From positions 1 through 60,533 of the forward strand of contig JBAZEI010000001.1 of NCBI GenBank assembly GCA_041654015.1: 60,533 nucleotides of DNA. Reading direction: 5' to 3'. Of this stretch, positions 6,447 to 59,091 are shown piece by piece; position 1 is the first letter of the stretch, and each line of letters starts with the position of its first letter. The position numbers and the translations under genes were made by a program. The DNA is from Minisyncoccota bacterium. Lineage in GTDB: Bacteria; Patescibacteriota; Minisyncoccia; UBA6257. The notes below the pieces were generated by a model. That model made no database searches. It worked only from the letters and a program-made list of their open reading frames with translations, and had not been told where the DNA came from.

Positions 6447-6545
6447 TGTCATTCTGAGCGTAGCCTCCGCCTTCGCTAAAGCTACGGTGGACAAGCCCGC
6501 CGTCGCCAGCGTCTGAAGCCGCAGGCTATGGCGGGCAAGGAAGAA
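6447..6545 (+). repeat. GC-rich two-hairpin element ('CGCTAAAGCT' family), copy 1
   Basis: tgtcattctgagcgtagcctccgccttcgctaaagctacggtggacaagcccgccgtcgccagcgtctgaagccgcaggctatggcgggcaagg. Near-identical copy at 45553..45642. Stems are CCGCC/GGTGG and GCCCGCC/GGCGGGC. Confidence 0.85.
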
Positions 6546-6626: not shown

Positions 6627-6660
6627 TCTTTGTTTATATCCTCGTTTTTTAATTTATTAC

Positions 6661-6702
6661 ATTCTACATTCTACATTCTACATTCTAAATTCTAGATTCT
6701 AA
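6661..6702 (+). repeat. Heptanucleotide tandem repeat (ATTCTAC x3, ATTCTAA, ATTCTAG, ATTCTAA)
   Basis: Six consecutive 7-mers ending 4 nt before the nrdD ATG. Confidence 0.95.
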
Positions 6703-6706
6703 TATT

Positions 6707-9700
6707 ATGTCTCCAAGAAAAAAATTTCATAATCATTTAAAAGAGGTTAAAAAAAGGACAGGTGAAATTGTCCCTTTTGAAAAGAAAAAAATAGAAGAAG
6801 CAATTTTCAAGGCCTTAACAGCTACGGATGAAGGCGGAAAAACTTTAGCCCGAGAATTATCAAATAAAGTTATTAAAATTCTTAATAGAAGATTTAAAAA
6901 AGAAGAAATTCCGTCGGTTGAAGAAATACAAGATATTGTTGAAGAAGTTTTAATTTTAGAGAATTTAGTTGAGACCTCAAAGGCCTATATTTTATACCGA
7001 GATCAAAGAAGAAAATTAAGAGAAAGCCAGATCGTTACTGAGGAATCAGTAAGTTTAGTGGATGAATACTTAGGAGTGAATGATTGGCAAGTAAAAGAGA
7101 ACAGCAATATGGCTTTCTCTCTTCAGGGGTTGAATCACTATGTATCTGCTTATGTCGCTAAAAAATATTGGTTAAGAAAAATTTACCCTAAAGAAATAAG
7201 AGAGGCAGTTGAAGCAGGGGATTTTCATATTCATAACTTGGATATTTTAGCCACTTATTGCTGTGGCTGGGATTTATATGATTTGCTTTTGCAGGGTTTT
7301 GGAGGTGTTTTTGGAAAAATTCAGTCAAAACCGCCAAAACATTTTGGTTCTGCTTTAGGGCAGGTAGTTAATTTTTTTTATACCCTTCAGGGCGAAGGCG
7401 CCGGAGCCCAAGCCTTTTCTAATTTTGACACTTTATTAGCCCCTTTTATTCGGTATGATAGTTTAAATTATCAGGACATAAAGCAATCTTTACAGGAGTT
7501 CCTTTTTAATTGTAATGTTCCGACACGGGTCGGCTTTCAATGTATTTCAGAGGATACAGAGATATTAAGCCCAACAGGGTGGAAAAATTATCAAGAAGTA
7601 GAAGAAGGAAATATTATTACAACGTTTAATTTAAAAACAAAAGCTTTAGAAAATAAAAAAGTTAGTTATGTATTTAAAAGAAAATATCATGGAATAATGT
7701 ATCGTTTACGCAATCGGATACAAGATCAGCTTATTTCCCCAAGGCATAAAGTAGTAAGGAGAAAATTTTATAGCAATGAATATGTTTTGGAACCTATAGA
7801 AGAAATAATGAAATTAAAATCTCCTTTTATTGTACCTATTACTGGAGAGAATATAAAATCGGATGTAAAACTAAGTGATGAGCAGATTAAACTAATGGCC
7901 TGGATTATCAGTGAAGGAACAATTGAAAGAAAGTCAAAATATCGTAGTTGCCACAGAGTTTCTATATATCAATCTAAAATTAAAAACAAGAAAAATTATA
8001 AAGAAATAGTTGGTTTATTAGAGCATTTTAAGTTTAAATATTCAGAATATAATACGGCCGCTTTGGGAGATGAAGTTTGCAAATTAAGATTAAACGCTGA
8101 GAGTTCTAAAGTTATTCATAAATGGTTTGGTTCTAAAGAAAATATTCATTTTATTCCGGAAGTTTTATTTAATTTAAGCAAGGAACAATCTAGATTATTT
8201 TTAAAAACTTATTTAAAAGGTGACGGTTTTGAGGAGTCTAAAATATCAATTACAGAATTGGAGCTATTAGAAGGGTTGGAGAGGATTATTGTGAATTCCG
8301 GATACGGATTCACTGTTCTTAAAAGAAAGCCTACTATAGGGAAAAAGGATATTTATGTTTTAAGAATTATCAGACATCAGGAAACCTATATTCAAAAAAT
8401 AGAAAAAGTTAATTACAAAGGAATAATTTGGTCAGTTCATACTCAAAACGAAACGGTTATCGCTCGACGCCGAGGAAAAGTTTTTATTACCGGCAACACT
8501 CCCTTTGAAAATATCACCTTAGATTTGAAAGTACCGGCTCATTTTAAAGATTTGCCGGTAATTATTGGCGGCCAACCGCAGAAAGAAACTTACAAAGATT
8601 TCCAAAAAGAGATGGATATCTTTAACCAGGCCTTATGTGAAATTTATACAGAGGGTGATTCTAGCGGAAGGGTTTTTACTTTTCCAATTCCCACTTACAA
8701 TATTACAAAAGATTTTGATTGGAGTAACCCTAGTTATGATGGTATTTGGAAAATGACTGCAAAGTATGGAATTCCATATTTTTCCAATTTCATTAATTCT
8801 GACTTAAGCCCTGAAGACGCACGAAGTATGTGTTTGGATGCTAAAGAAGAGATTTTGATTAAAGATTTTTCCGGTATAAAGAGACGTTTAATAGGAGATG
8901 TTGTGAAAGAGTATAAGCAGGGAAATTTTGACAGAGAGGGGTGGAGCAAATGTAAAGGGGATAATGATTTAAAGGCACTATCTTTAAATTATGAGACTGG
9001 GAAAGTAGAATGGACAAATGTAAAGAATTTTTTGCGGGTGTTGGATAATCAGATGGTAGAGATCGTATCTGAAGAAGGGAAATCTATTAGAGCTTCTCAG
9101 AAACACCTTGTTCCAGTTTTAACTCAAGGAGGATTGGTTAATAGATTCGCTCAAGATATTAAAGAAGGGGACTATCTTTTAACTTATAGAAAAGGTGATA
9201 TTTTGAATAATAATTACCAAAGGATAGGAGATTTAATCCTTAATGAAGACTTAGCGAAATTTTTAGGCTATTTTACTGCTGACGGCAATTATCTTTTTGA
9301 AAATAGAAAAAATCTAAGAACCTTTGGTTACCCCAGAGGACTACAATTTACTTTTAATGCAAAAACTAAAGCTAATTTAGAGAAGATAAAAGCATTGATT
9401 AAAAATATTTTTTCTCTAAAAACGAAAGAAAAGAAAGACCCACGCTATAATTCTTACTATCTTTACATCTATAATTCTCAATTAGCTAGGAAATTATTTC
9501 AGGCAGGTTTTAAAAAATATGGTTGTTTGCCAGATATTTTGTTCAACTCGCCCCAGGCGGTTATTGAAGCATTTTTAGAGTTTCATTTTAAAGGAGATGG
9601 TTATGCAAAAAGGCAAGAGATTCATATTAATGATCCGAAATTAGCCAGGGATTTAGCAATTTTGTATTCTTTAATAGGAAAATCGGTGACTTACAGAGAA

Positions 9701-17903: not shown

Positions 17904-18263
17904 ATGCAACAAATAATAACAGAAAGCTTAATGACGAATTTTTGGCTGCTTGCTTTATTCCTTACTTGGAGCTTAATTTGGAAAGGATTGGCATTGTGGA
18001 AAGCGGCAAGAAATGAACATAGATGGTGGTTTATCGCTTTGTTGATTATAAATACAGCAGGCCTTTTAGAAATAATTTATATTTTCTTTTTTAGTAAAAA
18101 GAAAGAGTTTGTAGAAAAGAAGCCCTCCGCCGCTTCCACCTCCGCTAAAGCTTCGGTGGATAAAAAAGCTATGGAGGATAAGCCCTCCTCTGCTTCCACC
18201 TCCGCTAAAGCTTCGGTGGATAAAAAAGCTATGGAGGACAAGGAAGAAACAATAAAAGAATAG
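17904..18263 (+). CDS. Small membrane protein (DUF5652-like) with a repeat-encoded C-terminal tail
   Basis: Two TM helices (LWKAARNEHRWWFIALLIINTAGLLEIIYIFFF). The tail contains two 20-aa repeats, PS.ASTSAKASVDKKAMEDK. Confidence 0.55.
   Translation: MQQIITESLMTNFWLLALFLTWSLIWKGLALWKAARNEHRWWFIALLIINTAGLLEIIYIFFFSKKKEFVEKKPSAASTSAKASVDKKAMEDKPSSASTSAKASVDKKAMEDKEETIKE
18121..18240 (+). repeat. Tandem 2 x 60-nt in-frame repeat related to the 'CGCTAAAGCT' hairpin family
   Basis: Units 18121..18180 and 18181..18240 differ at 3 positions. Each contains tccacctccgctaaagcttcggtgga...gctatggagga. Confidence 0.9.
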
Positions 18264-19578: not shown

Positions 19579-19606
19579 TTGACATTCATTTTAGATTTGC
19601 TATACT
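19579..19606 (+). promoter_or_regulatory. Sigma-70-like promoter TTGACA-16 nt-TATACT
   Basis: ttgacattcattttagatttgctatact. Confidence 0.65.
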
Positions 19607-19612
19607 CTCCTT

Positions 19613-19693
19613 GGTGTTATTTTTAAGCCGCAAGGCCTATAAATAACACCATTGCTGTCGTTTTTGGCTTGCCAAAGGCGGCAGCATTTTTTT
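19613..19693 (+). ncRNA. Candidate ~80-nt small RNA, copy 1
   Basis: Lies downstream of its own promoter. Hairpin 1 is GGUGUUAUUU..GCC-GCAA-GGC..AAAUAACACC (GNRA loop). Hairpin 2 is UGCUGUCG..UUGGC-UUG-GCCAA..CGGCAGCA followed by U7, which looks like an intrinsic terminator. No ORF. Confidence 0.45.
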
Positions 19694-19705
19694 ATATTAA
19701 AACAT

Positions 19706-24143: not shown

Positions 24144-24171
24144 TTGACATTCATTTTAGATTTGCTATACT
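24144..24171 (+). promoter_or_regulatory. Sigma-70-like promoter TTGACA-16 nt-TATACT (regenerated by the TSD)
   Basis: Identical to 19579..19606. Confidence 0.6.
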
Positions 24172-24177
24172 ACTTCT

Positions 24178-24258
24178 GGTGTTATTTCTAAGCCGCAAGG
24201 CCTATAAATAACACCATTGCTGTCGTTTTTGGCTTGCCAAAGGCGGCAGCATTTTTTT
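24178..24258 (+). ncRNA. Candidate ~80-nt small RNA, copy 2
   Basis: Same two hairpins and U-tract as 19613..19693. The differences cluster in the first ~10 nt. Confidence 0.45.
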
Positions 24259-24416
24259 ATTATTAATAATTATTAATGAGGATAATTAATGAGGTCGGAC
24301 CTCGTTAATTATTTTAGAAAAAGTTAATTTATATATTTTCTTATTTTTTCATATATTTTCTTTTTTCAATTGTTTCTGGTATGATATGAACGCGGAAAAT
24401 AAATTGTTTTAACTAA

Positions 24417-40260: not shown

Positions 40261-40308
40261 ATGGCAAATAACAATTTAACAATATAACAATTTAGCAATT
40301 TATATTCT

Positions 40309-45402: not shown

Positions 45403-45770
45403 GGAAGAATCTCTCGTTTTCTTTTGTCATTCTGAGCGGAGCGAAGAATCCCTCGCGAATGCGAGAATCACACTAACAACAAGGAGAACAGTTCTCCTGT
45501 GTTCTATAATAAAATTTACGACGTCGGACGTCCCAAAATTCTTTGTCCTTTTGAGTGTAGCCTTCGCCTTCGCTAAAGCTACGCTGGACAAGCCCGCCTT
45601 CGCCAGCGCCTGAAGCCGCAGGCTATGGCGGGCAAGGAAGAATCTCTCGTTTTCTTCTGTCATTCTGAGCGAAGCGAAGAATCTCTCGCGAATGCGAGGA
45701 TCACATTAATAACAAGGAGAACAGTTCTCCTGTGTTTCATATCCCTCGCGAATGCGAGAAATTCACTTTG
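45403..45770. repeat. Composite array of GC-rich repeat modules (X1 - spacer/Y - X2 - partial X)
   Basis: X1 (45403..45503) and X2 (45636..45736) are ~101-nt near-identical direct repeats: ..tgtcattctgagcgRagcgaagaatc.ctcgcgaatgcgag..aggagaacagttctcctgtgtt. Y (45553..45642) matches 6460..6545. A third ctcgcgaatgcgag lies at 45745..45758. Confidence 0.9.
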
Positions 45771-48485: not shown

Positions 48486-49724
48486 ATGACTTTAAAACCT
48501 TTTGATTCGGCAGATTTTAGCCGAAAAAAAGTTTTAATGAGAGTGGATTTTAATGTCCCTTTGAAACAAAATAAAATTCTGGATGATTTTAGGATTCAAC
48601 GCACCTTGCCAACAATCAATTTTTTAAAAGAAAAGAAAGCAGAGAAAATTATCCTTATTTCTCATTTTGGTCGTCCCTTAAAAAGAGACCCAAAGTTTAG
48701 TTTAGAGCCGATTAGTCGGCATTTAGAAAAGATTATTGGAGAGACAATTTATTTTTTGAAAACGCCGATTGGCAGCCAGCTTTCAGAAGAAATTGAAAAA
48801 TTGCCAAATAATTGCATAATTCTTTTGGAGAATATCCGTTTTTATGAGGAAGAAGAAAAAAATGATAAAAATTTTGCCAAAGAATTAGCGAAAATGGGGG
48901 ATTGTTTTATAAACGAAGCTTTTTCTGCTTCCCATCACGAAGCAGCTTCTTTATGCGCGATTACAGAATTTTTACCCTCTTTTATGGGCAAATTGCTTGA
49001 AGAAGAAATATCGCAGCTGAATAGAATTATTAAAACTCCCAAAAGGCCATTGGTAATAGTTTTAGGGGGCTCTAAAGTAAAAGACAAATTACCTGTGGTT
49101 AAAAGGTTTTTAGAACAGGCAGATTATGTTTTATTGGGAGGAGTAGTCGCCGATACAGTTTTGAAAGCCAATGATTTTTCCATAGGTTCTTCTATTTTTG
49201 ATAGAGAGATATTAGATGCAGCAAAAAATTTGGGTTCCCAAAAGGCAGAATTAATTTTACCCGGCGATTTTAGGGTTTTAAACAAAGACAACAAAAAGCA
49301 AATAAAAGAATTGGGATTAATCACTAATAAAGATGTTATTTTTGATATTGGGCCGCTTGCTGCCAAAACCTTTGCTCAGATTATTTCAAAAGCAAAAACA
49401 ATATTTTTTAACGGCGCGATGGGTAAATTTGAAGACCCGAGATTTAGCGATGGCACTAAAGAAATCATAGAGGCTATTATAAACAATCAGAAAGCTCAAA
49501 CAGTTATTGGCGGCGGCGATACTTTATTAGCTTTTAAAATTCTAAAACCAGAATACAGAATACCCGCTCGCCTTGCTCCCGCCTGCTTCGAATTGCGAAG
49601 CGAATCGGGCAGGTCGCAGTGCGAAGCGGGCAGGCAGAATACAGGATACAGATTTTTTTCCACTGGTGGTGGAGCAATGTTGGAGTATTTGGCTGGAAAA
49701 TCACTCCCCGGTTTAACAATATAA
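48486..49724 (+). CDS. pgk: Phosphoglycerate kinase carrying an in-frame GC-rich insertion near the C-terminus
   Basis: RVDFNVP, ISHFGRP, GGSKVKDK, VIGGGDT, STGGGAMLEYL.GK.LPG. Start is ATG 48486 (the track start is TTG 48477). Confidence 0.92.
   Translation: MTLKPFDSADFSRKKVLMRVDFNVPLKQNKILDDFRIQRTLPTINFLKEKKAEKIILISHFGRPLKRDPKFSLEPISRHLEKIIGETIYFLKTPIGSQLSEEIEKLPNNCIILLENIRFYEEEEKNDKNFAKELAKMGDCFINEAFSASHHEAASLCAITEFLPSFMGKLLEEEISQLNRIIKTPKRPLVIVLGGSKVKDKLPVVKRFLEQADYVLLGGVVADTVLKANDFSIGSSIFDREILDAAKNLGSQKAELILPGDFRVLNKDNKKQIKELGLITNKDVIFDIGPLAAKTFAQIISKAKTIFFNGAMGKFEDPRFSDGTKEIIEAIINNQKAQTVIGGGDTLLAFKILKPEYRIPARLAPACFELRSESGRSQCEAGRQNTGYRFFSTGGGAMLEYLAGKSLPGLTI
49548..49652 (+). repeat. 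~105-nt GC-rich element inserted in frame in pgk
   Basis: Encodes PEYRIPARLAPACFELRSESGRSQCEAGRQNTGYR between GGGDT..FKILK and FFSTGGGA. Flanked by CAGAATACAGAATAC / CAGAATACAGGATAC. The 14-mer gcgaagcgggcagg is the reverse complement of lepA 55531..55544. Confidence 0.8.
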
Positions 49725-49744
49725 CAATTTAGCAATGTAACAAG

Positions 49745-50578
49745 ATGATTGTTTTTTATCATAAAAATTGCCCTGATGGATTTGCTAGTGCTTGGGTTGC
49801 CTGGAAGAAATTTAAAGCCAAGGGCCAGTATTTTCCTTTAAATTATCAATCTCCTTTTAAGCATTTTATCCAGAAGGAGAAAATTTATTTTTTTGATGTT
49901 ATTCCTGAAAGAAAAACTTTGGAAGATTTAATTGAAAAAGGAAACGAAATTACAATAATTGACCATCACCTAAGCGCTAAAAGAATTTTGGATTTTGATA
50001 AGCCAAAAAATATGAAAGTGAAGTTGAATATGAAACATTCCGCTTCAGTTTTGGTTTGGCGGTATTTTTTTTCTAAAAAGAAAGTTCCAGAATTATTACT
50101 CTATATAGAGAATATGGACCTCTGGAAATTTAAGAAACCTTATACTCGGGAAATTTTAGCAACGATTAATACGCCGGATTTTGAGTTTAAAAAATGGAGT
50201 AAGTTGGTTAAAGAAATAGAAAATAAAAAAACAAGAAAGAAATATATTGAAGCTGGAAAAAAAGTTGTTGAATATCAAGATGAAATAATAGCAGGATTGG
50301 TTCAGGAAGCTAAAGAAGTGGAATTTTCAAAATGCAAGACTTTAGTTGTTAACTCATCAATTTTAATTTCTGAAATAGGCGACGCTTTAATCAAAAAAAG
50401 GCCTCCAATGGCTGTTATTTGGTTTGAGACAGGCGAAGAAAAAAGAATTTCTCTGCGTTCTAATGGCAAGATAGATGTTTCTAAAATTGCGGAAAAGTAT
50501 GGCGGTGGAGGCCACAAAAAAGCAGCCGGATTCAGTTTAAAAGCCAATAGACCTTTTCCCTGGAAGGAATATTTTTAA
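49745..50578 (+). CDS. DHH/DHHA1 family phosphoesterase
   Basis: ITIIDHH and YGGGGHKKAAGF. Confidence 0.7.
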   Translation: MIVFYHKNCPDGFASAWVAWKKFKAKGQYFPLNYQSPFKHFIQKEKIYFFDVIPERKTLEDLIEKGNEITIIDHHLSAKRILDFDKPKNMKVKLNMKHSASVLVWRYFFSKKKVPELLLYIENMDLWKFKKPYTREILATINTPDFEFKKWSKLVKEIENKKTRKKYIEAGKKVVEYQDEIIAGLVQEAKEVEFSKCKTLVVNSSILISEIGDALIKKRPPMAVIWFETGEEKRISLRSNGKIDVSKIAEKYGGGGHKKAAGFSLKANRPFPWKEYF

Positions 50579-53707: not shown

Positions 53708-55306
53708 ATGATTGCTCAGTTTCAAAAAATATTAAATCATAAATCAGAAACAATTTTTGGGGCAGCGATGCTTACGAGCGCCCTTACTTTATTGGGCAGT
53801 TTTTTGGGTCTTTTGAGAAATGCGTTTTTAGCTAGCCGTTTTGGGGCCTCGGGCTATTTAGATATTTATTATGCCTCTTTTCGGCTTCCGGATTTGATTT
53901 ATAACATTTTTATTATGGGAGCCGTCTCTCTCGTTTTTATTCCTGTTTTTAGCGAATACTGGGCTAAAAACAAAGAAGAAGCTTGGCAATTTGCCAATGC
54001 TATAATTATGGTGATCGGCGTCTTTATAGGAATTTTGGCTTTAATAGTGGCTATTTTTACCCGACCCTTGCTCTCCCGTCTTTTAGTAGGTTTTAGCGCT
54101 GAACAAATAGAGATAGCCATTGTTTTAACAAGAATTATGATGATTCAGCCGATTTTAATGGGTATTTCTTCTGTTGCCGCTAGTATTTTAAAAATATTTA
54201 AATTATTTTTATCCTGCGCTTTAGCTCCTTTAATGTACAACACAGGGATTATAATTGGAATTCTCATTTTTTCTCCAATGATGGGATTAAAAGGATTGGC
54301 TTGGGGCGTAGTTTTGGGCGCTGCTCTGCATTTAGCAATTCAAATTCCGGCCTTAATGACTACCGGCTATAAGTTTAAATTTAACAGTCATGTTTTAAAA
54401 GAAAGGATAGCAGGGTTGAAAAACGTGTTTTTAATGATGATTCCGCGCTCCTTGGCTATTATTGCCAACCAAATTTTCCTTTTGGGCATTACAGTTATCG
54501 CCACAATGTTGGAAGAAGGGAGTTTAGCTGTATTTAATTTTGCCAATGATATTCAAAATTTGCCTCAAACAGTATTTGCTTTGTCTTTTGCCGCCGCCGC
54601 CTTTCCTGTTTTATCGCAATTTAGCGCTGAAAAAAGGCAGACTGATTTTGCAAAAACTTCACTAAAAACCCTTTCTCAGATATTTTTCTTTTTGATCCCG
54701 ATAGCAGTTTGGTTTATTGTTTTTCGAGAGCCGATTATCCGTCTTCTATTGGGCTATGGAAAATTTAATTGGGCTTCAACTATTAAGACAATTCAAGTTT
54801 TTTCAATTCTTTCTTTAGGAATGGTTTTTCAGGGGGCGAACGCTTTGCTACTAAGAATTTTTTTCGCCCAAAAAGACGCCCTAAAACCTTTTATTGCCAG
54901 TATTGTTTCTTACGCTTTGGGGTTTTTATTATGTTATAAATTTGGCTTGGTTTTTGGAGTAAGTGGTTTAGCTTTAGCGGTAACTTTGACATACCTATTT
55001 TACTTTTTGATTTTGGCAATTTTACTAAAACCGGTATTTTCTTCTTCGTCTTTAAAAGAGTTTCGTTCCTCTTTATTAAAGATATTATTTGTTTCTTTGA
55101 TTAGCGGACTAGTCGCCTTTTTATTATTTGGCTTTTTAGAGGGATATTTCCCTTCGGAAAAAGTTGTAAATTTAGTAGCAAACGCCGCCATTTCATTTAC
55201 GGCATCTTTGTTCTGCTTTGTATTTCTCTGTTTTAAGATTGGCATCAAAGAGGTAAATGAGATAAAAACCATTTTTATTCGTAAAATATACAAAACCGAT
55301 GAATAA
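53708..55306 (+). CDS. murJ: Lipid II flippase MurJ (MviN)
   Basis: 532 aa, ~14 TM. N-terminal GLLRNAFLASRFGAS...DIYYASFRLPDL. Confidence 0.85.
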   Translation: MIAQFQKILNHKSETIFGAAMLTSALTLLGSFLGLLRNAFLASRFGASGYLDIYYASFRLPDLIYNIFIMGAVSLVFIPVFSEYWAKNKEEAWQFANAIIMVIGVFIGILALIVAIFTRPLLSRLLVGFSAEQIEIAIVLTRIMMIQPILMGISSVAASILKIFKLFLSCALAPLMYNTGIIIGILIFSPMMGLKGLAWGVVLGAALHLAIQIPALMTTGYKFKFNSHVLKERIAGLKNVFLMMIPRSLAIIANQIFLLGITVIATMLEEGSLAVFNFANDIQNLPQTVFALSFAAAAFPVLSQFSAEKRQTDFAKTSLKTLSQIFFFLIPIAVWFIVFREPIIRLLLGYGKFNWASTIKTIQVFSILSLGMVFQGANALLLRIFFAQKDALKPFIASIVSYALGFLLCYKFGLVFGVSGLALAVTLTYLFYFLILAILLKPVFSSSSLKEFRSSLLKILFVSLISGLVAFLLFGFLEGYFPSEKVVNLVANAAISFTASLFCFVFLCFKIGIKEVNEIKTIFIRKIYKTDE

Positions 55307-57231
55307 CAATATTCGTAACTTCGTCATTATTGCCCATATTGATCATGGAAAGTCTACTTTGGCTGATAGGTTTTTGGAATTGACAAAGACGATTTCGAAA
55401 AATAAATTAAGTCCCCAATACTTAGACAGAATGGATTTAGAAAAAGAACACGGCATTACTATTAAGATGCACCCGGTTCAAATGCTCTATCAGGCAAAAA
55501 CCCTAAATCCTAAATCCGAAATTCTAAACACCTGCCCGCTTCGCTTTGCGAAGCAAAGCAGGCGGGAATCCCAAATCCAAAATTCTAAATCCCAGAAAAA
55601 TAATTTAGAATTTAGCGCTTCGGATTTAGAGTTTTCAAATTCAGAATATATTTTGAACTTGATAGATACTCCGGGGCATGTTGATTTTACTTATGAAGTT
55701 TCTCGCGCCTTGGCTGCAGTTGAAGGAGCCGTGCTTTTGGTAGACGGAACTCAGGGTATCCAGGCGCAAACTCTTTCTAATCTTATGTTAGCTCAAAAAC
55801 AGGGTCTTAAAATTATCGGCGCTATTAATAAAATAGATTTAGAAATTCCTGATTTAGAACAAAAAAGAAAAGAGTTGGCTGATTTGTTAAAGGTTGATAA
55901 AAAAGAGATAGTTCTTTTATCGGCAAAAACAGGAGAAAATGTGGATCTTCTGCTTCAAAAAATTGTAATTGAAATTCCCAGTCCAAAAATTAAAAATGAG
56001 CTTCCTTTTCGGGCTTTGGTATTTGACTCTCATTATGATGATTATAAAGGGATTATTGCTTATTTAAGGGTTATTGAAGGAGAAGTCGCCAAAGGAGAAA
56101 AAATTAATTTTGTTATCAGCGGCGCAAAAGGAAGCGCTGTTAATTTGGGTTATTTTGCTCCGGAATTAAAGCCAAAAGATAGATTAAAATCAGGGGAAAT
56201 TGGCTGGATTGCAACAGGGTTAAAAGATTTAAATTTAGTTCGAGTCGGAGACACAATAGCCAAATCATTAAACATAGAACCTTTGCCGGGCTATAAAGAA
56301 CCAAAACCAGTGGTTTTTGCCGGTTTTTATTTAGCCAAAGGCAAAGCAGATTCAGGTTTAAGTAAAGGCGATAAGGATTTTGAGCATTTTCGTCATTCTT
56401 TATATCAATTAAAATTGAACGATTCGGCTTTATATTTTACTCCAGAAAGCTCTGAAGCTTTGGGCCGGGGTTATCGTTTAGGGTTTTTAGGGATGCTTCA
56501 TTTAGAAATTACTCAGGAAAGATTAAAAAAAGAATACGGTTTGGATTTAATCATTACTCAACCAACAGTGCCTTATAAAGTTTTACTCAAAGGCAACAAA
56601 GAAAAAATTATTACCAATCCCAGCGAATGGCCTTCCCTCAATGAAATTATTGGCTATGAAGAACCTTGGGTAAATATGGAGATTATTACAATGCCCCAGT
56701 ATTTATCCAATATAATGAAGCTAATAAATGGCTCGCGGGGCGAAAATATCAATACTTTTACTTTTGCCGAAAGATTGATTATAAAATGCGAGATACCTTT
56801 GGAGGAGGTAATTAAAGATTTTTACGATAATTTAAAATCTGTTTCTTCTGGTTACGCCTCTTTGAGCTACGAAATCTCGGGATATAAGCCGACAGAATTG
56901 GAAAAGTTAGAAGTAGTTTTGGCGGGAAAACAATTTGAAAGTTTGTCGCGGATAGTTTTTAGAGATAAAATAGAAAAGGAAGCGAGAAGAGGTTTTGCCT
57001 CGCCAAAATTACGCTATCCCGATACAGATAAAAGGGATGGGTAGGATTATTGCCCGGGAAACAGTGCCTGCTTTGAAAAAAGATGTTACGGGTTATCTTT
57101 ATGGCGGGGACAGAACCAGAAAAATGAAACTTTGGAAAAAACAGGCAAAAGGGAAGAAAAAACTTTTAGAAGAAGCAGATTTAGAGATTCCTTCAGAAGT
57201 TTTCTTAAAAATATTCCCTTCTTCCCGTTAA
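55299..57231 (+). CDS. lepA: Elongation factor 4 (LepA), with an in-frame insertion in the G domain and an apparent +1 frameshift near the 3' end
   Basis: IRNFVIIAHIDHGKSTL, NLIDTPGHVDF, INKIDL. The conserved C-terminus LPRQNYAIPIQ..IIARETV..YGGD.TRK.KL..KQ..GKK continues in the next frame (track ORF 56995..57231). The frames switch at the T4 run 56993..56996. Confidence 0.88.
55497..55646 (+). repeat. ~150-nt palindromic element inserted in frame in lepA
   Basis: Encodes KTLNPKSEILNTCPLRFAKQSRRESQIQNSKSQKNNLEFSASDLEFSNSE, where E. coli LepA has about 5 residues. Outer inverted repeat ctaaatccgaaattctaaa (55510..55528) / tttagaattt..cggatttag (55604..55629). GC core with GCTTCGC..GCGAAGC hairpin at 55531..55566. 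Confidence 0.8.
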
Positions 57232-57652: not shown

Positions 57653-57763
57653 AATTAGCGAGATTAGTATAGTGGTAGTATATCACCTTCCCAAGCCCCC
57701 ACACCAAAGAAGGATATCAATTTCGCGGACATCGTATAGTGGCTAGTACGTAACCTTCCCAAG

Positions 57764-57895
57764 TCCCCACACCAAACGAGTATTACTTGCGAGATTAGTA
57801 TAGTGGTAGTATATCACCTTCCCAAGGTGAGGGCGCCGGTTCGATTCCGGTATCTCGCTCAACTTAGAATTTAAAATATCGTTATGGTGTGGGGA
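57764..57895. mobile_element. TIR element E2 (TCCCCACACC...GGTGTGGGGA), TSD CAAG, whose cargo is the intact tRNA-Gly 'C'
   Basis: Arms 57764..57788 and 57860..57895. Shares CCAAACG / CGTTATGG and AACTTAGAA with the tuf-promoter element. Confidence 0.75.
57789..57859 (+). tRNA. tRNA-Gly (anticodon CCC), intact copy 'C'
   Basis: Hand-folded. Acceptor GCGAGAT/ATCTCGC, D arm GTAT-AGTGGTA-GTAT, anticodon arm TCACC-UUCCCAA-GGTGA, 4-nt variable loop, T arm GCCGG-TTCGATT-CCGGT. No encoded CCA. Confidence 0.88.
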
Positions 57896-58002
57896 CAAGG
57901 TTAAAGCGTGGGTTCGATTCCCATTGTCCGCTCAAAATATAAGTAATCCTTCTTATGGTGTGGGGGCAAGGTGAGGGCGCCGGTTCGATTCCGGTATCTC
58001 GC

Positions 58003-59091
58003 TCAGATAATTTTTCCGCCCCCTAAACATTTATCTTTTTGATAAAAAACAGCGAATTGGCCCGGGCAGGGGGCAAAAACCGGTTTTGAAAAAACAATTT
58101 TTAATTTTCTTTTTTCCGGAATTATAATAGCTGATGCAGGTTTTTGCTGGTAGCGAATACTCACTTGGGCTTTAAAAGGTTTTGATAGTTTTTTTCCAGA
58201 AATAAAGTGATGAGGAAAAACAAAGATTTCTTTTTTAAAGAGATCTTTTTTATTTTTACTCACTAAAAGAGCGTTTTTCTTTTTGTCAAAGCCGACAACA
58301 AAATAAGGGCCGCCGGAAAGTTTGATCCCTTTTCTTTGGCCAATGGTAAAAAAATGCAATCCTTGGTGTTGGGATAAAATATTTTTTTGAGTGTCAATTA
58401 TTAAACCTTGTTTTTTACCAATTTTTTGTTCCAAAAAAGGGCAAAGAGACTGGCCGGCAATAAAACAAAAATCCTTACTTTCTTCTATTTTGCTAAAGAA
58501 TTTCAGCCCCTGTTTTTTTGCTATTTGATAAATTTCTTTTTTAGAGTAATCACCGAGAGGAAAAATGATATGTTTGAGCCATTTTTGAGGCAAAAAACAG
58601 AGATTATAAGTTTGATCTTTATTTTTATCTTCGGCTTTTAATAACTCATACTGCTTTGTTTTAGAATTAAATTTCAGTCTTGCATAGTGGCCAGTCGCAA
58701 TATATTCAATCTTATGTTTTTTTGCCCAAGCGATTAATTGTTTAAACTTGAAATTAGGATTGCAAATAACGCAAGGATTGGGGGTTCTTAAATTTTTCCA
58801 TTCGTTAATAAAATACCCAACAACTTGTTTTTTAAAATCTTTTTTCGCGTCCACAATATGATGAGGGATACCTAACTTTTTACAAACCTTAGCTGCTACT
58901 TCTAGAGATTGTTTTTTTACAAGACGGGCATTTGCTTTTGAAAAATTGGTTTTATCCTCCCAAATAGGCAATTCTAAAGAAAGGCCGATCGGCTGCCAGC
59001 CTTCTTGTTTTAATAGTATTAAAGCGGCCGAGGAATCTACTCCTCCGGACATACCAACAACAATTTTTTGGCCCTTAATATTTTTTGACAT
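58003..59091 (-). CDS. mnmA: tRNA-specific 2-thiouridylase MnmA
   Basis: PP-loop VGMSGGVDSS, PNPCVICN, ATGHYAR. Confidence 0.9.
   Translation of the reverse strand: MSKNIKGQKIVVGMSGGVDSSAALILLKQEGWQPIGLSLELPIWEDKTNFSKANARLVKKQSLEVAAKVCKKLGIPHHIVDAKKDFKKQVVGYFINEWKNLRTPNPCVICNPNFKFKQLIAWAKKHKIEYIATGHYARLKFNSKTKQYELLKAEDKNKDQTYNLCFLPQKWLKHIIFPLGDYSKKEIYQIAKKQGLKFFSKIEESKDFCFIAGQSLCPFLEQKIGKKQGLIIDTQKNILSQHQGLHFFTIGQRKGIKLSGGPYFVVGFDKKKNALLVSKNKKDLFKKEIFVFPHHFISGKKLSKPFKAQVSIRYQQKPASAIIIPEKRKLKIVFSKPVFAPCPGQFAVFYQKDKCLGGGKII

Follow-up and report, generated by a model that had tools for sequence, protein, structure and literature searches.

What is the DNA that lengthens the G domain of LepA (elongation factor 4, EF4) at this locus, and how did it come to lie inside a conserved gene? 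In the window (the whole stretch of 60,533 nt that was analysed) about 150 extra nucleotides separate the coding sequences of GITIKMHPVQM and YILNLIDTPGH in lepA; they are in frame, stop-free and strongly self-complementary. Residues Q65-E116 of the protein (55491-55646) stand where most of 120 aligned homologues have a turn of 2 residues, and the net gain of 150 nt bears out an earlier, preliminary description of this DNA, according to which the insert is in frame, contains no stop codon and has a length divisible by three. Its inverted arms (55497-55528 against 55604-55635) are 32 nt long and 81% complementary, and folded as DNA the region reaches -26.2 kcal/mol against -13.7 +/- 2.8 for shuffled sequences (z -4.4; 0 of 200 shuffles as good); both results support the claim that palindromic repeat DNA is translated in frame within the G domain. 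From alignment to two structures, the site falls between residues 70 and 71 of Aquifex LepA (2YWE) and 71 and 74 of the EF4 chain 5IMQ_B, at the tip of the surface-exposed beta2-beta3 hairpin of the G domain, in agreement with the placement between switch I and the G3 motif given previously. The insert is predicted to be disordered: the AlphaFold2 model of LepA has a pLDDT of 82 overall, falling below 50 at residues 69-113 and to 33-39 in the insert, which is flanked by two intact strands. By this prediction the extra peptide would lie on the surface of LepA and leave the fold intact, as is typical of Rickettsia palindromic elements (RPEs), with which the insert also has in common that it is an in-frame, stop-free palindromic repeat of the ~100-150-nt size class in a conserved gene.

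Protein searches gave nothing. The LepA of the window has no exact counterpart among public assemblies. A 54-residue insert peptide had no phmmer match among 1.84 billion representative proteins, a method unsuited to short low-complexity peptides, and a 41-residue peptide gave no candidates in a protein word-index search; DNA patterns were used instead because such peptides are not searchable by phmmer. Rfam at gathering thresholds identified only 2 tRNAs in the whole window. An intein, intron or intervening sequence is unlikely and was rejected on sequence grounds, since no Rfam family reached its gathering threshold at the insert and the low-complexity peptide has no intein blocks; a CRISPR repeat was also considered and rejected.

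By sequence comparison the insert is composed of two nested elements (Table 1): an AT-rich palindrome of AAATYCN heptamers, 114 nt net (element A), and a GC-rich unit of 36 nt (element B). The evidence is a copy of A in the lepA gene of a relative, L001, that is 95-100% identical to ours and lacks exactly the 36 nt of B. The preliminary description, which saw one element of 150 nt, was therefore right about the palindrome and its reading frame and wrong about its unity. Element B reads CCTGCCCGCTTCGCTTTGCGAAGCAAAGCAGGCGGG on the plus strand and CCCGCCTGCTTTGCTTCGCAAAGCGAAGCGGGCAGG in its family orientation (minus strand), and occupies the junction of AAACA and AATCC in the loop of A, where its predicted peptide is (T)CPLRFAKQSRR(E). 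The hairpin formerly noted in the GC core was recovered as GCTTCGC-TTT-GCGAAGC at 55538-55554. The core peptide of B is absent from all 119 other LepA homologues, and parsimony suggests that B was inserted later, into an older palindrome A, in this lineage only, rather than lost from the others.

Table 1. Positions in the window of the host gene lepA, of elements A and B and their parts, and of related features
Feature	Position	Strand	Remarks
lepA (EF4), host gene	55299..57231	+	120 homologues named elongation factor 4 (Ca. Pacebacteria/Paceibacteria)
High-identity stretch	55473..55669	+	95-100% identical to lepA of L001; A plus ~24 nt of lepA on each side
Element A, left part	55491..55530	+	AAACCCT AAATCCT AAATCCG AAATTCT AAACA; boundary set against the empty allele L249
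Element A, left stem arm	55505-55528	+	Consensus structure of five LepA copies
Element B	55531..55566	-	36-nt GC-rich hairpin unit; family orientation on the minus strand
Element A, right part	55567..55646	+	Loop heptamers AATCCCA AATCCAA AATTCTA AATCCCAG, then right stem arm and tail to E116
Element A, right stem arm	55604-55611 plus 55619-55634	+	Broken by the 7-nt bulge TTAGCGC at 55612-55618
Copies of B in pgk	49563..49634	+	Unit 49578-49613 nested in unit 49563-49577 plus 49614-49634

Element A is carried by about 15 LepA orthologues that are scattered over the LepA tree, at the same codon and usually with the same length, which is identical in 5 divergent lineages; in one deep clade (P0112, P0116, P0118, and P0119) every member has an A-type insert. 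Carrier L001 and its closest relative with an empty site, L249, are 85% identical and differ by the clean presence or absence of 114 nt, while L002 has a plain short (CAAAACT)x4 tract at the site, and L006, L007, and L008 have longer or shorter versions. The consensus stem of five LepA copies consists of 23 pairs, three of them with compensatory changes. In all 10 pairs compared the insert is more similar (74-95% identity) than the rest of the gene (57-74%), and its identity does not follow gene distance. Between the window and L001, lepA is 75% identical overall, rising to the values of Table 1 in the high-identity stretch; over the whole gene 313 informative sites unite L001 with L249 and 116 unite L001 with the window, as against 1 and 9, respectively, in the 26-nt flanks of the insert. 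This stretch is probably a recombination patch, and homologous recombination of such a patch, ~170 nt long, is apparently how A passes from one lepA allele to another. A MITE was rejected for A, as the filled site (L001) and the empty site (L249) differ without a duplication and the flanks are co-transferred. A homologous, conserved insert in orthologues, named beforehand as evidence against a palindromic element, does exist for the outer palindrome, yet it is no refutation because the orthologues have the same unusual palindrome, distributed patchily and transferred laterally. A second copy of A in the 60-kb window was found neither by blastn-short nor by nhmmer nor by a covariance model (which does match its own lepA site at 55558-55643); within the window, the proposed dispersed element related to an insert in pgk is supported for the GC core and not for the outer palindrome.

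Beyond lepA, the loci for a census of A were picked by the left-arm pattern, and the covariance model was built from the LepA copies. At E-values that are rough on such low-complexity DNA (E <= 1e-3), it gave 61 full-length matches at non-lepA loci; it also matched ~15 viral contigs (29 rows, both strands), and only ~7 extra matches came from 656 kb of contigs not chosen for heptamers. These full-length relatives come from several phyla; they occupy intergenic DNA and viral contigs, and one lies within a 16S rRNA gene. An irregular motif, TTTCGTGCTTCGGATTT, is common to loci from Saccharibacteria, Planctomycetota, Desulfobacteraceae, and viruses. Plain arrays of AAATYCN-type heptamers occur in frame in housekeeping ORFs of many more phyla than the structured palindromes do, and heptamer peptides were seen in a class I aminoacyl-tRNA synthetase, UvrA, TsaD, PheT, and PEP synthase. 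The arms of A are tandem arrays of 7-nt units whose number varies among relatives, as in heptanucleotide simple sequence repeats (SSRs), a class that fits A incompletely because A also has non-repeat features. Heptamer arrays built of different units also occur at 6660-6705 of the window and within pgk.

Element B has two loci in the window, lepA and pgk. Near matches to its hairpin occur only at pgk 49585-49601 (5 matches, with 0.18 expected by chance), and the 14 nt previously reported as the reverse complement of pgk 49621-49634 are a real, exact match. The composite in pgk amounts to 72 nt, in frame, within a (CAGAATA)n heptamer tract; the syntenic pgk of L002 has the tract without these 72 nt, and the same B-in-B arrangement was found in an unrelated contig (L154). 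The 36-mer of lepA recurs in L165 and L188. In total the B family was found in at least 120 metagenome stretches, and 100 of 122 units are exactly 36 nt long. The unit consists of a CCCG tail and a 32-nt hairpin with a GCGAAGC-type mini-hairpin at its centre; the 32-nt hairpin has 14 pairs, with a covariation of 0.099 against 0.053 when shuffled (0 of 500 shuffles as high), and is an imperfect palindrome within the 20-40 bp of REP sequences. Both window copies have the CCCG tail as well, and its invariance across the family is by construction because the search pattern fixed CCCG; the GTAG or CGTC tags of known REP superfamilies are absent from B, which has no clear target motif either. Copies are arranged in tandem, nested in each other and nested in heptamer arrays, and the doublets seen, with neighbour orientation noted only in the copies met, are direct tandems or nested pairs, not inverted ones. 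Among 101 copies, 13 have flanking direct repeats of at least 8 nt, compared with 8 among 1200 controls; at sites other than lepA the flanking repeats range in length from 7 to 14 nt and stem from tandem arrays. A MITE was rejected for B too, given a filled site (the window) and an empty one (L001) without duplication and no target-site duplication of fixed length. The pattern search for B in viral contigs gave 0 matches.

Most copies of B (62 of 89 assessable) lie outside long ORFs. Others are in frame in RpoB, UvrA, ArgRS, GAPDH, TsaD, an amidase, the CCA-adding enzyme, and a glycosyltransferase, and the consensus unit has no stop codon in any of its six frames. The preliminary description had proposed that intragenic copies with lengths divisible by three would be the signature of selection on translated selfish elements. 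All intragenic core copies in the metagenome sample have such lengths, but 48 of the 62 copies outside long ORFs also measure 36 nt: the length is intrinsic to the unit, and divisibility by three alone is therefore no signature of selection. Elements A and B each belong to a widespread repeat family, and no relevant published description turned up when we searched the literature for the heptamer array, for the 36-mer or for the encoded peptides.

Several known systems resemble the two elements in part. RPEs are reportedly found inside proteins of Rickettsia. The likeness is one of architecture: palindromic repeats of ~100-150 nt in frame in housekeeping proteins, translated, surface-located and apparently neutral to function, in small-genome, host-dependent bacteria. 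In contrast, the present host belongs to another phylum, of the candidate phyla radiation, and kinship in sequence with RPEs is not expected; two families are nested, the inner one of only 36 nt; and the outer one consists of tandem heptamers, returns at a single site in orthologues and would spread by recombination. Nostoc is said to have small dispersed repeats (SDRs), mobile hairpins of 21-27 nt that insert into other repeats and nest; B is likewise a very small nested hairpin repeat, but sequences, sizes and organisms are different. REP and REPIN sequences, which tyrosine transposases (RAYTs) mobilise (Di Nocera et al. 2013, PMC3733652; Bertels and Rainey 2011, PMC3116915) have in common with B an imperfect palindrome of 20-40 bp with an unpaired 4-nt tail, a high copy number and a location mostly outside ORFs, with some copies in uvrA and other housekeeping genes, as was reported for intragenic REPs (PMC3733652). 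REPs, however, carry an unpaired GTAG or CGTC tetranucleotide at one end (PMC3733652) and are reported as head-to-head dimers, whereas B has CCCG, was met in direct tandems or nested, is strictly 36 nt long and is strongly associated with heptamer arrays. Heptanucleotide SSRs of Xanthomonas (GGGAATC; Rehm et al. 2015, PMC4692102) and, as cited in that paper from Mrazek et al. 2007, of Nostoc (GGGGATT) resemble A in their 7-nt units related to AATCC, sometimes inverted, and in a length that varies among relatives. Those SSRs, rich in G and prone to quadruplex formation, lie for the most part between genes and are depleted in coding regions, while A is AT-rich, has a conserved architecture (two arms, junction, and bulge), is predicted to be translated and has a heptamer unit found in many phyla and in viral contigs.

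From these comparisons the 150 extra nucleotides are probably two nested, non-autonomous palindromic repeats that are transcribed and translated within LepA and persist as tolerated passengers; tolerated selfish DNA, of the kind of the Rickettsia RPEs and intragenic REPs, is the most likely description. The 114-nt element A occupies the hairpin tip of the G domain in Paceibacteria lepA genes that are patchily distributed and, judging from the mosaic pattern, would spread by short-patch homologous recombination in which ~25 nt of conserved lepA sequence is carried along on either side, so that no fresh transposition into an empty site need be invoked. It is one member of the family of structured heptamer palindromes that in several phyla also populate intergenic DNA, rRNA genes and viral contigs. 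The abundant REP-like unit B (36 nt, 12 codons) would have entered the loop of A later, a direction given by parsimony. Neither element would serve LepA; both may persist because a surface loop tolerates a disordered, hydrophilic peptide. Our leading guess for the mobilisation of B is a single-strand hairpin mechanism, e.g. a tyrosine/HUH transposase or template switching at the replication fork.

Foremost among the other explanations, though unlikely, is that A is a functional nucleic-acid element that happens to be translated, such as an mRNA hairpin for the translation or stability of lepA or a protein-bound array. Its DNA is conserved above the rest of lepA in every pair, its length is constant in divergent lineages, it folds strongly and its stem has compensatory changes, all of which would also be compatible with selection for a role as nucleic acid in place of selfish persistence; but A is missing from most close relatives, L249 included, the L002 site has a short simple tract only, and the family also populates intergenic DNA, a 16S rRNA gene and viral contigs. 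An expansion segment specific to LepA and selected as protein (e.g. an interaction loop), inherited vertically with repeated loss, has a still smaller probability. Lineages only ~50% identical in LepA do have a like peptide at the same site (ILNPKSEILN..KSQIQNSKSQ..LEFSASDLEF), and the deep clade consists of carriers only. This reading is countered by the predicted disorder, by conservation at synonymous positions as well, by co-transferred flanks, and by insert similarity that is incongruent with gene similarity; moreover, the peptide pattern is the direct outcome of heptamer DNA that is also present outside genes.

About equally improbable is that no mobile element is involved and that replication slippage expanded heptamers independently in each lineage at a slippage-prone site. 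Heptamers are an over-represented SSR class in bacteria (PMC4692102), and both the plain L002 tract and the arrays of other units elsewhere in the window fit slippage, which nevertheless cannot produce inverted arms with a common irregular 7-nt bulge and AAACAAAT junction across phyla. It also leaves unexplained the 95% identity of the element within 75%-identical genes with co-transferred flanks, the full-length, nearly identical copies at unrelated loci and in unrelated genomes, and the whole of B. Least probable is an artefact or decay, i.e. an assembly error or a dying pseudogene that gathers junk. The lepA ORF does end early: it runs from 55299 to 57044 (+), and the conserved C-terminal part continues at 56995-57231 in another frame because 20 nt present in relatives (L001 and L002) are missing after ~56986. 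A dN/dS of 0.11 upstream and 0.045 downstream of this deletion argues against the old, decaying pseudogene that the preliminary description had allowed for, and the same insert is found in independent assemblies from other samples, in intact LepA genes of 595-650 residues.

Textbooks treat in-frame palindromic repeats in essential proteins as a curiosity, one known chiefly from Rickettsia. In this window the phenomenon is seen in bacteria of the candidate phyla radiation, with two new families. In the literature that we searched, we found no description of one such element nested in another, of the strong affinity of a small hairpin for heptamer arrays, or of inserts spreading among divergent alleles by short-patch homologous recombination. 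Low-complexity inserts of 12 to 50 residues will interfere with alignments, phylogenies, domain annotation and the calling of pseudogenes in metagenome-assembled genomes, and the fixed 36-nt unit of B is an easy marker by which to track such elements. More speculatively, and with considerable doubt on our side, the AAATYCN palindromes may be an undescribed family that extends from the candidate phyla radiation to Planctomycetota and viral contigs, is maintained at the nucleic-acid level, homes into the same codon of essential genes by nuclease-free recombination and offers preferred landing pads to the six-frame-open unit B of RpoB, UvrA, GAPDH, TsaD, and LepA. Maintenance of the heptamer palindromes at the nucleic-acid level across phyla, if true, would make them a new, widespread class of genomic element, and the two families would together form a two-tier system in which translated selfish DNA steadily supplies the core proteins of ultra-small bacteria with short disordered loops.

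The lepA gene of the window starts at 55299 on a contig of 34% GC, and the nearest proteins to its product are translation elongation factors 4 of Candidatus Pacebacteria/Paceibacteria, which are part of the Patescibacteria (candidate phyla radiation). Where most of the 120 aligned LepA homologues have a 2-residue turn, this gene shows a net gain of 150 nt, in frame and stop-free. Over 32 nt, the arms of the insert (55497-55528 and 55604-55635) show 81% complementarity, and its DNA folds at -26.2 kcal/mol versus -13.7 +/- 2.8 for shuffles (z -4.4). The preliminary description was thus right about the extra in-frame DNA and its long imperfect palindrome, and the GC hairpin and the 14-nt reverse-complement match to pgk are both real. 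Its view of a single 150-nt element has to be abandoned: contig L001, which encodes LepA homologue P0010, has an insert 95-100% identical to that of the window minus exactly 36 nt (CCTGCCCGCTTCGCTTTGCGAAGCAAAGCAGGCGGG, window 55531-55566), and a peptide matching this unit is absent from all 119 other LepA homologues. Judged by these alignments, the insert is two elements: an outer 114-nt palindrome of AAATYCN heptamers (element A, 55491-55530 plus 55567-55646) and a 36-nt GC-rich unit (element B) nested in its loop.

Positions of the inserts, repeats and tRNA copies in the window
Feature	Position	Strand	Remarks
LepA insert	55491-55646	+	Q65-E116, 52 residues; flanked by GITIKMHPVQM and YILNLIDTPGH
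lepA deletion	56980-57000		GAAGCGAG^AAGAGG; versus L001 and L002
pgk insert	49563-49634		72 GC-rich nt, in frame, mid heptamer tract; versus L002
pgk composite	49536-49652		(CAGAATA)n tract and nested B units
Intact tRNA-Gly(CCC)	57789-57860		innermost, within the insert splitting the second tRNA-Gly
Second tRNA-Gly	5' half 57726-57763; 3' half 57896-57934		divergent, split
Third tRNA-Gly	5' half 57658-57695; 3' half 57967-58005		split, identical to the intact copy
GC-rich repeat pair, 99 nt	6447-6545 and 45544-45642		93% identity
GC-rich repeat pair, 106 nt	45403-45508 and 45636-45741		92% identity
GC-rich repeat pair, 117 nt	19579-19695 and 24144-24260		95% identity
GC-rich tandem 60-mers, two	18120-18239		inside ORF 17904-18263
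Short tandem array	6660-6705		(ACATTCT)x4, then AAATTCT and AGATTCT; ATG at 6707
Short tandem array	40267-40302		TAACAATN octamers; ORF start 40309
Short tandem array	49712-49745		TAACAATN octamers; ORF start 49745

In alignments to solved LepA/EF4 structures the insert falls at the tip of the G domain's beta2-beta3 hairpin. An AlphaFold2 model (52-sequence alignment; mean pLDDT 82, pTM 0.78) gives residues 69-113 a pLDDT of 33-39 between two intact strands, so that the insert is predicted to form a disordered hydrophilic loop. The window lepA lacks 20 nt after ~56986 that are present in L001 and in L002 (GCA_028719125.1, a syntenic relative 88% identical in lepA), which shifts the frame and displaces the conserved LepA_C part into another one (56995-57231). 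Relative to L002, lepA has evolved under purifying selection (dN/dS 0.11), and the C-terminal part past the shift has hardly changed (dN/dS 0.045); the frameshift therefore arose very recently by deletion or is an error of assembly, and does not mark a long-decaying pseudogene.

About 15 LepA homologues carry an insert with a related peptide pattern at the same codon, a number raised by a search query that included the insert and hence over-sampled carriers; element A has an identical length in five of them, the window counted without B. In a neighbour-joining tree computed without the loop, the carriers are scattered and several are sister to insert-less proteins, and in one deep LepA clade every member has element A. 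A 23-pair stem, its right arm interrupted by a 7-nt bulge, is common to the five copies of equal length, and three stem pairs are maintained through changes on both sides. Each of the ten pairs of genes shows higher identity in the insert DNA (74-95%) than in the remainder of the gene (57-74%), and the rank order of insert similarity does not track gene relatedness. The window and L001 genes are 75% identical overall and 95-100% identical across 55473-55669, that is, element A with ~24 nt on either side. L249, the closest empty-site relative of L001 (85% identity), cleanly lacks the 114 nt, and the filled and the empty site, when compared, show no target duplication. A three-way alignment yields 313 informative sites over the whole gene that unite L001 with L249 and 116 that unite it with the window; in the two 26-nt flanks of the insert the figures are 1 and 9, several of the flank sites being synonymous (binomial probability of 9 or more of 10 at p = 0.27, by our arithmetic, about 6e-5). 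From this one trio of sequences we infer that homologous recombination carried a patch of ~170 nt containing A from one divergent lepA allele to another, the conserved GITIK.. and ..DTPGH coding DNA providing the homology arms.

Element A is not confined to lepA. Its left-arm pattern, (AAATYCK)x3+AAA, occurs in at least 120 stretches of species-representative genomes; the matches listed include Acidobacteriota, Verrucomicrobiota, Planctomycetota, Cyanobacteria, Bacteroidota, Chloroflexota, Omnitrophota and several candidate-phyla-radiation groups, many being plain arrays and some inverted pairs. A covariance model trained on the five LepA copies only gave 61 full-length matches (E <= 1e-3) in non-lepA heptamer loci, the E-values being rough and most loci pre-selected by the left arm; examples are Planctomycetota contig L023 (69 bits) and Saccharibacteria contigs L021, L043 and L091, and ~15 IMG/VR viral contigs match as well. 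Metagenome contigs picked without regard to heptamers (656 kb) yielded only ~7 non-lepA matches, so the model does not fire on AT-rich DNA generally; in the window its only match is the one in lepA. The irregular motif TTT[AC]G[TC]GCTT.RRATTT is common to the LepA copies and other A loci (Saccharibacteria, other candidate-phyla-radiation, Planctomycetota, Desulfobacteraceae and viral). One copy of the family lies between yidC and yidD, and an A-type palindrome occupies positions 74-216 of L021 (CAZPZY010000055.1), within the 5' part of a 16S rRNA gene (1-448) in which Rfam SSU model positions 1-271 are stretched over 448 nt. Plain arrays are read in frame, mostly as KSEIRNPKSE, in a class I aminoacyl-tRNA synthetase, UvrA, TsaD, PheT and PEP synthase. 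AAATYCK arrays were also seen in 75 IMG/VR viral contigs (L250-L324), several labelled giant-virus metagenome-assembled genomes; it is in ~15 of these 75 that the model matches full-length A-type palindromes. The Verrucomicrobiota uvrA of L012 has two heptamer-derived inserts (N-terminal SEIRNPKSETSSKSEVRSPKSEV, C-terminal VRNPKSEIRN), and the uvrA genes of L063 and L238 also have heptamer or B inserts.

The pattern of element B, CCCGCCTGCTT..GCGAAGC..GGGCAGG, was found in at least 120 metagenome stretches, and not in viral contigs; among the matches listed, 100 of 122 units are exactly 36 nt long. The consensus, CCCGCCTGCTTCGATATGCGAAGCATTTCGGGCAGG, is stop-free in all six frames by our translation. 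Covariation supports pairing of columns 5-19 with 23-36 around a central GCGAAGC, the CCCG tail being unpaired; double changes occur at five pairs, and the covariation score, taken at positions left free by the search pattern, is 0.099 versus 0.053 for shuffles (none of 500 as high). Units stand in direct tandem in L132 and L167, and B is nested in B in L146, L157, L163, L154 and the window pgk, as expected of an inserting element. Of 101 copies, 13 have flanking direct repeats of 8 nt or longer, versus 8 of 1200 control positions, and the insertion sites show no strong target motif. About 30% of the assessable copies lie within long open frames, among them those of RpoB, UvrA, ArgRS, GAPDH, TsaD, an amidase, the CCA-adding enzyme and a glycosyltransferase. 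That intragenic copies would be multiples of three was borne out for B (27 of 27 in long frames, with 11 of 62 outside departing from it, a comparison partly circular since the ORF would not survive a copy out of frame); in itself it is no signature of selection, because 36 nt is the commonest length of copies outside genes as well and so intrinsic to the element. The reading PARNASHxEAGG, used by 16 of the 27 in-frame copies, suggests that selection filters the tolerated frames.

B keeps company with heptamer arrays. The exact LepA variant recurs in L165 and L188 inside (CAGAATA)n arrays, and the pgk of L002 has a (CAGAATA)-type tract without the 72-nt insert of the window, which is one B unit nested in another. 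In L154, an unrelated metagenome contig, a pilin-like ORF has at its 5' end a composite 89% identical to that of pgk, and another B flanked by heptamers lies 700 nt away; the similarity of L154 to the window is confined to the 117-nt composite (heptamers, nested B units, heptamers), which indicates that heptamer arrays either attract B or travel together with it. In the glycosyltransferase group 1 genes of L090 (heptamer-derived peptide only) and L145 (heptamer peptides and a B unit) both inserts directly precede the conserved FLVVSRL motif, which repeats what lepA and pgk show.

Other repeats in the window deserve mention. A three-level nested tRNA-Gly(CCC) fills 57656-58005, the second copy itself lying inside an insert that splits the third. 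In each split copy the anticodon loop is broken after CCCAAG and CAAG is duplicated, and the inserts have inverted-repeat ends (CCCCCACACCA... and ...TGGTGTGGGGG); the 350 nt fold at -145 kcal/mol versus -96 shuffled (z -9.9). Between divIC and mnmA there are no gene calls in L002 (gap of 75 nt) or L001 (129 nt). The arrangement resembles either split tRNA genes or a tiny anticodon-loop-targeting element equipped with a replacement tRNA. Families of GC-rich repeats stand in the otherwise AT-rich contig, and short tandem arrays lie directly upstream of start codons.

The closest behavioural analogues of the LepA insert are the Rickettsia palindromic element and intragenic REPs, the latter reported in uvrA, uvrB and other genes (PMC3733652). 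Like a REP, B consists of a hairpin in the 20-40 bp range next to an unpaired tag; the tag, however, is CCCG and not GTAG or CGTC, for which reason we do not assign B to the REP superfamilies. By its arms, A falls in the class of over-represented heptanucleotide repeats (PMC4692102), known but poorly studied; that paper describes no conserved palindromic architecture or translation such as A has. Full-text literature searches with the element sequences and peptides gave no matches. The LepA insert is most likely selfish DNA that is tolerated and translated, in general kind already known, and a function of A as nucleic acid is the less probable reading; new are the lineage and the families, and unusual are the nesting, the affinity for heptamer arrays and the inferred spread between alleles by recombination.
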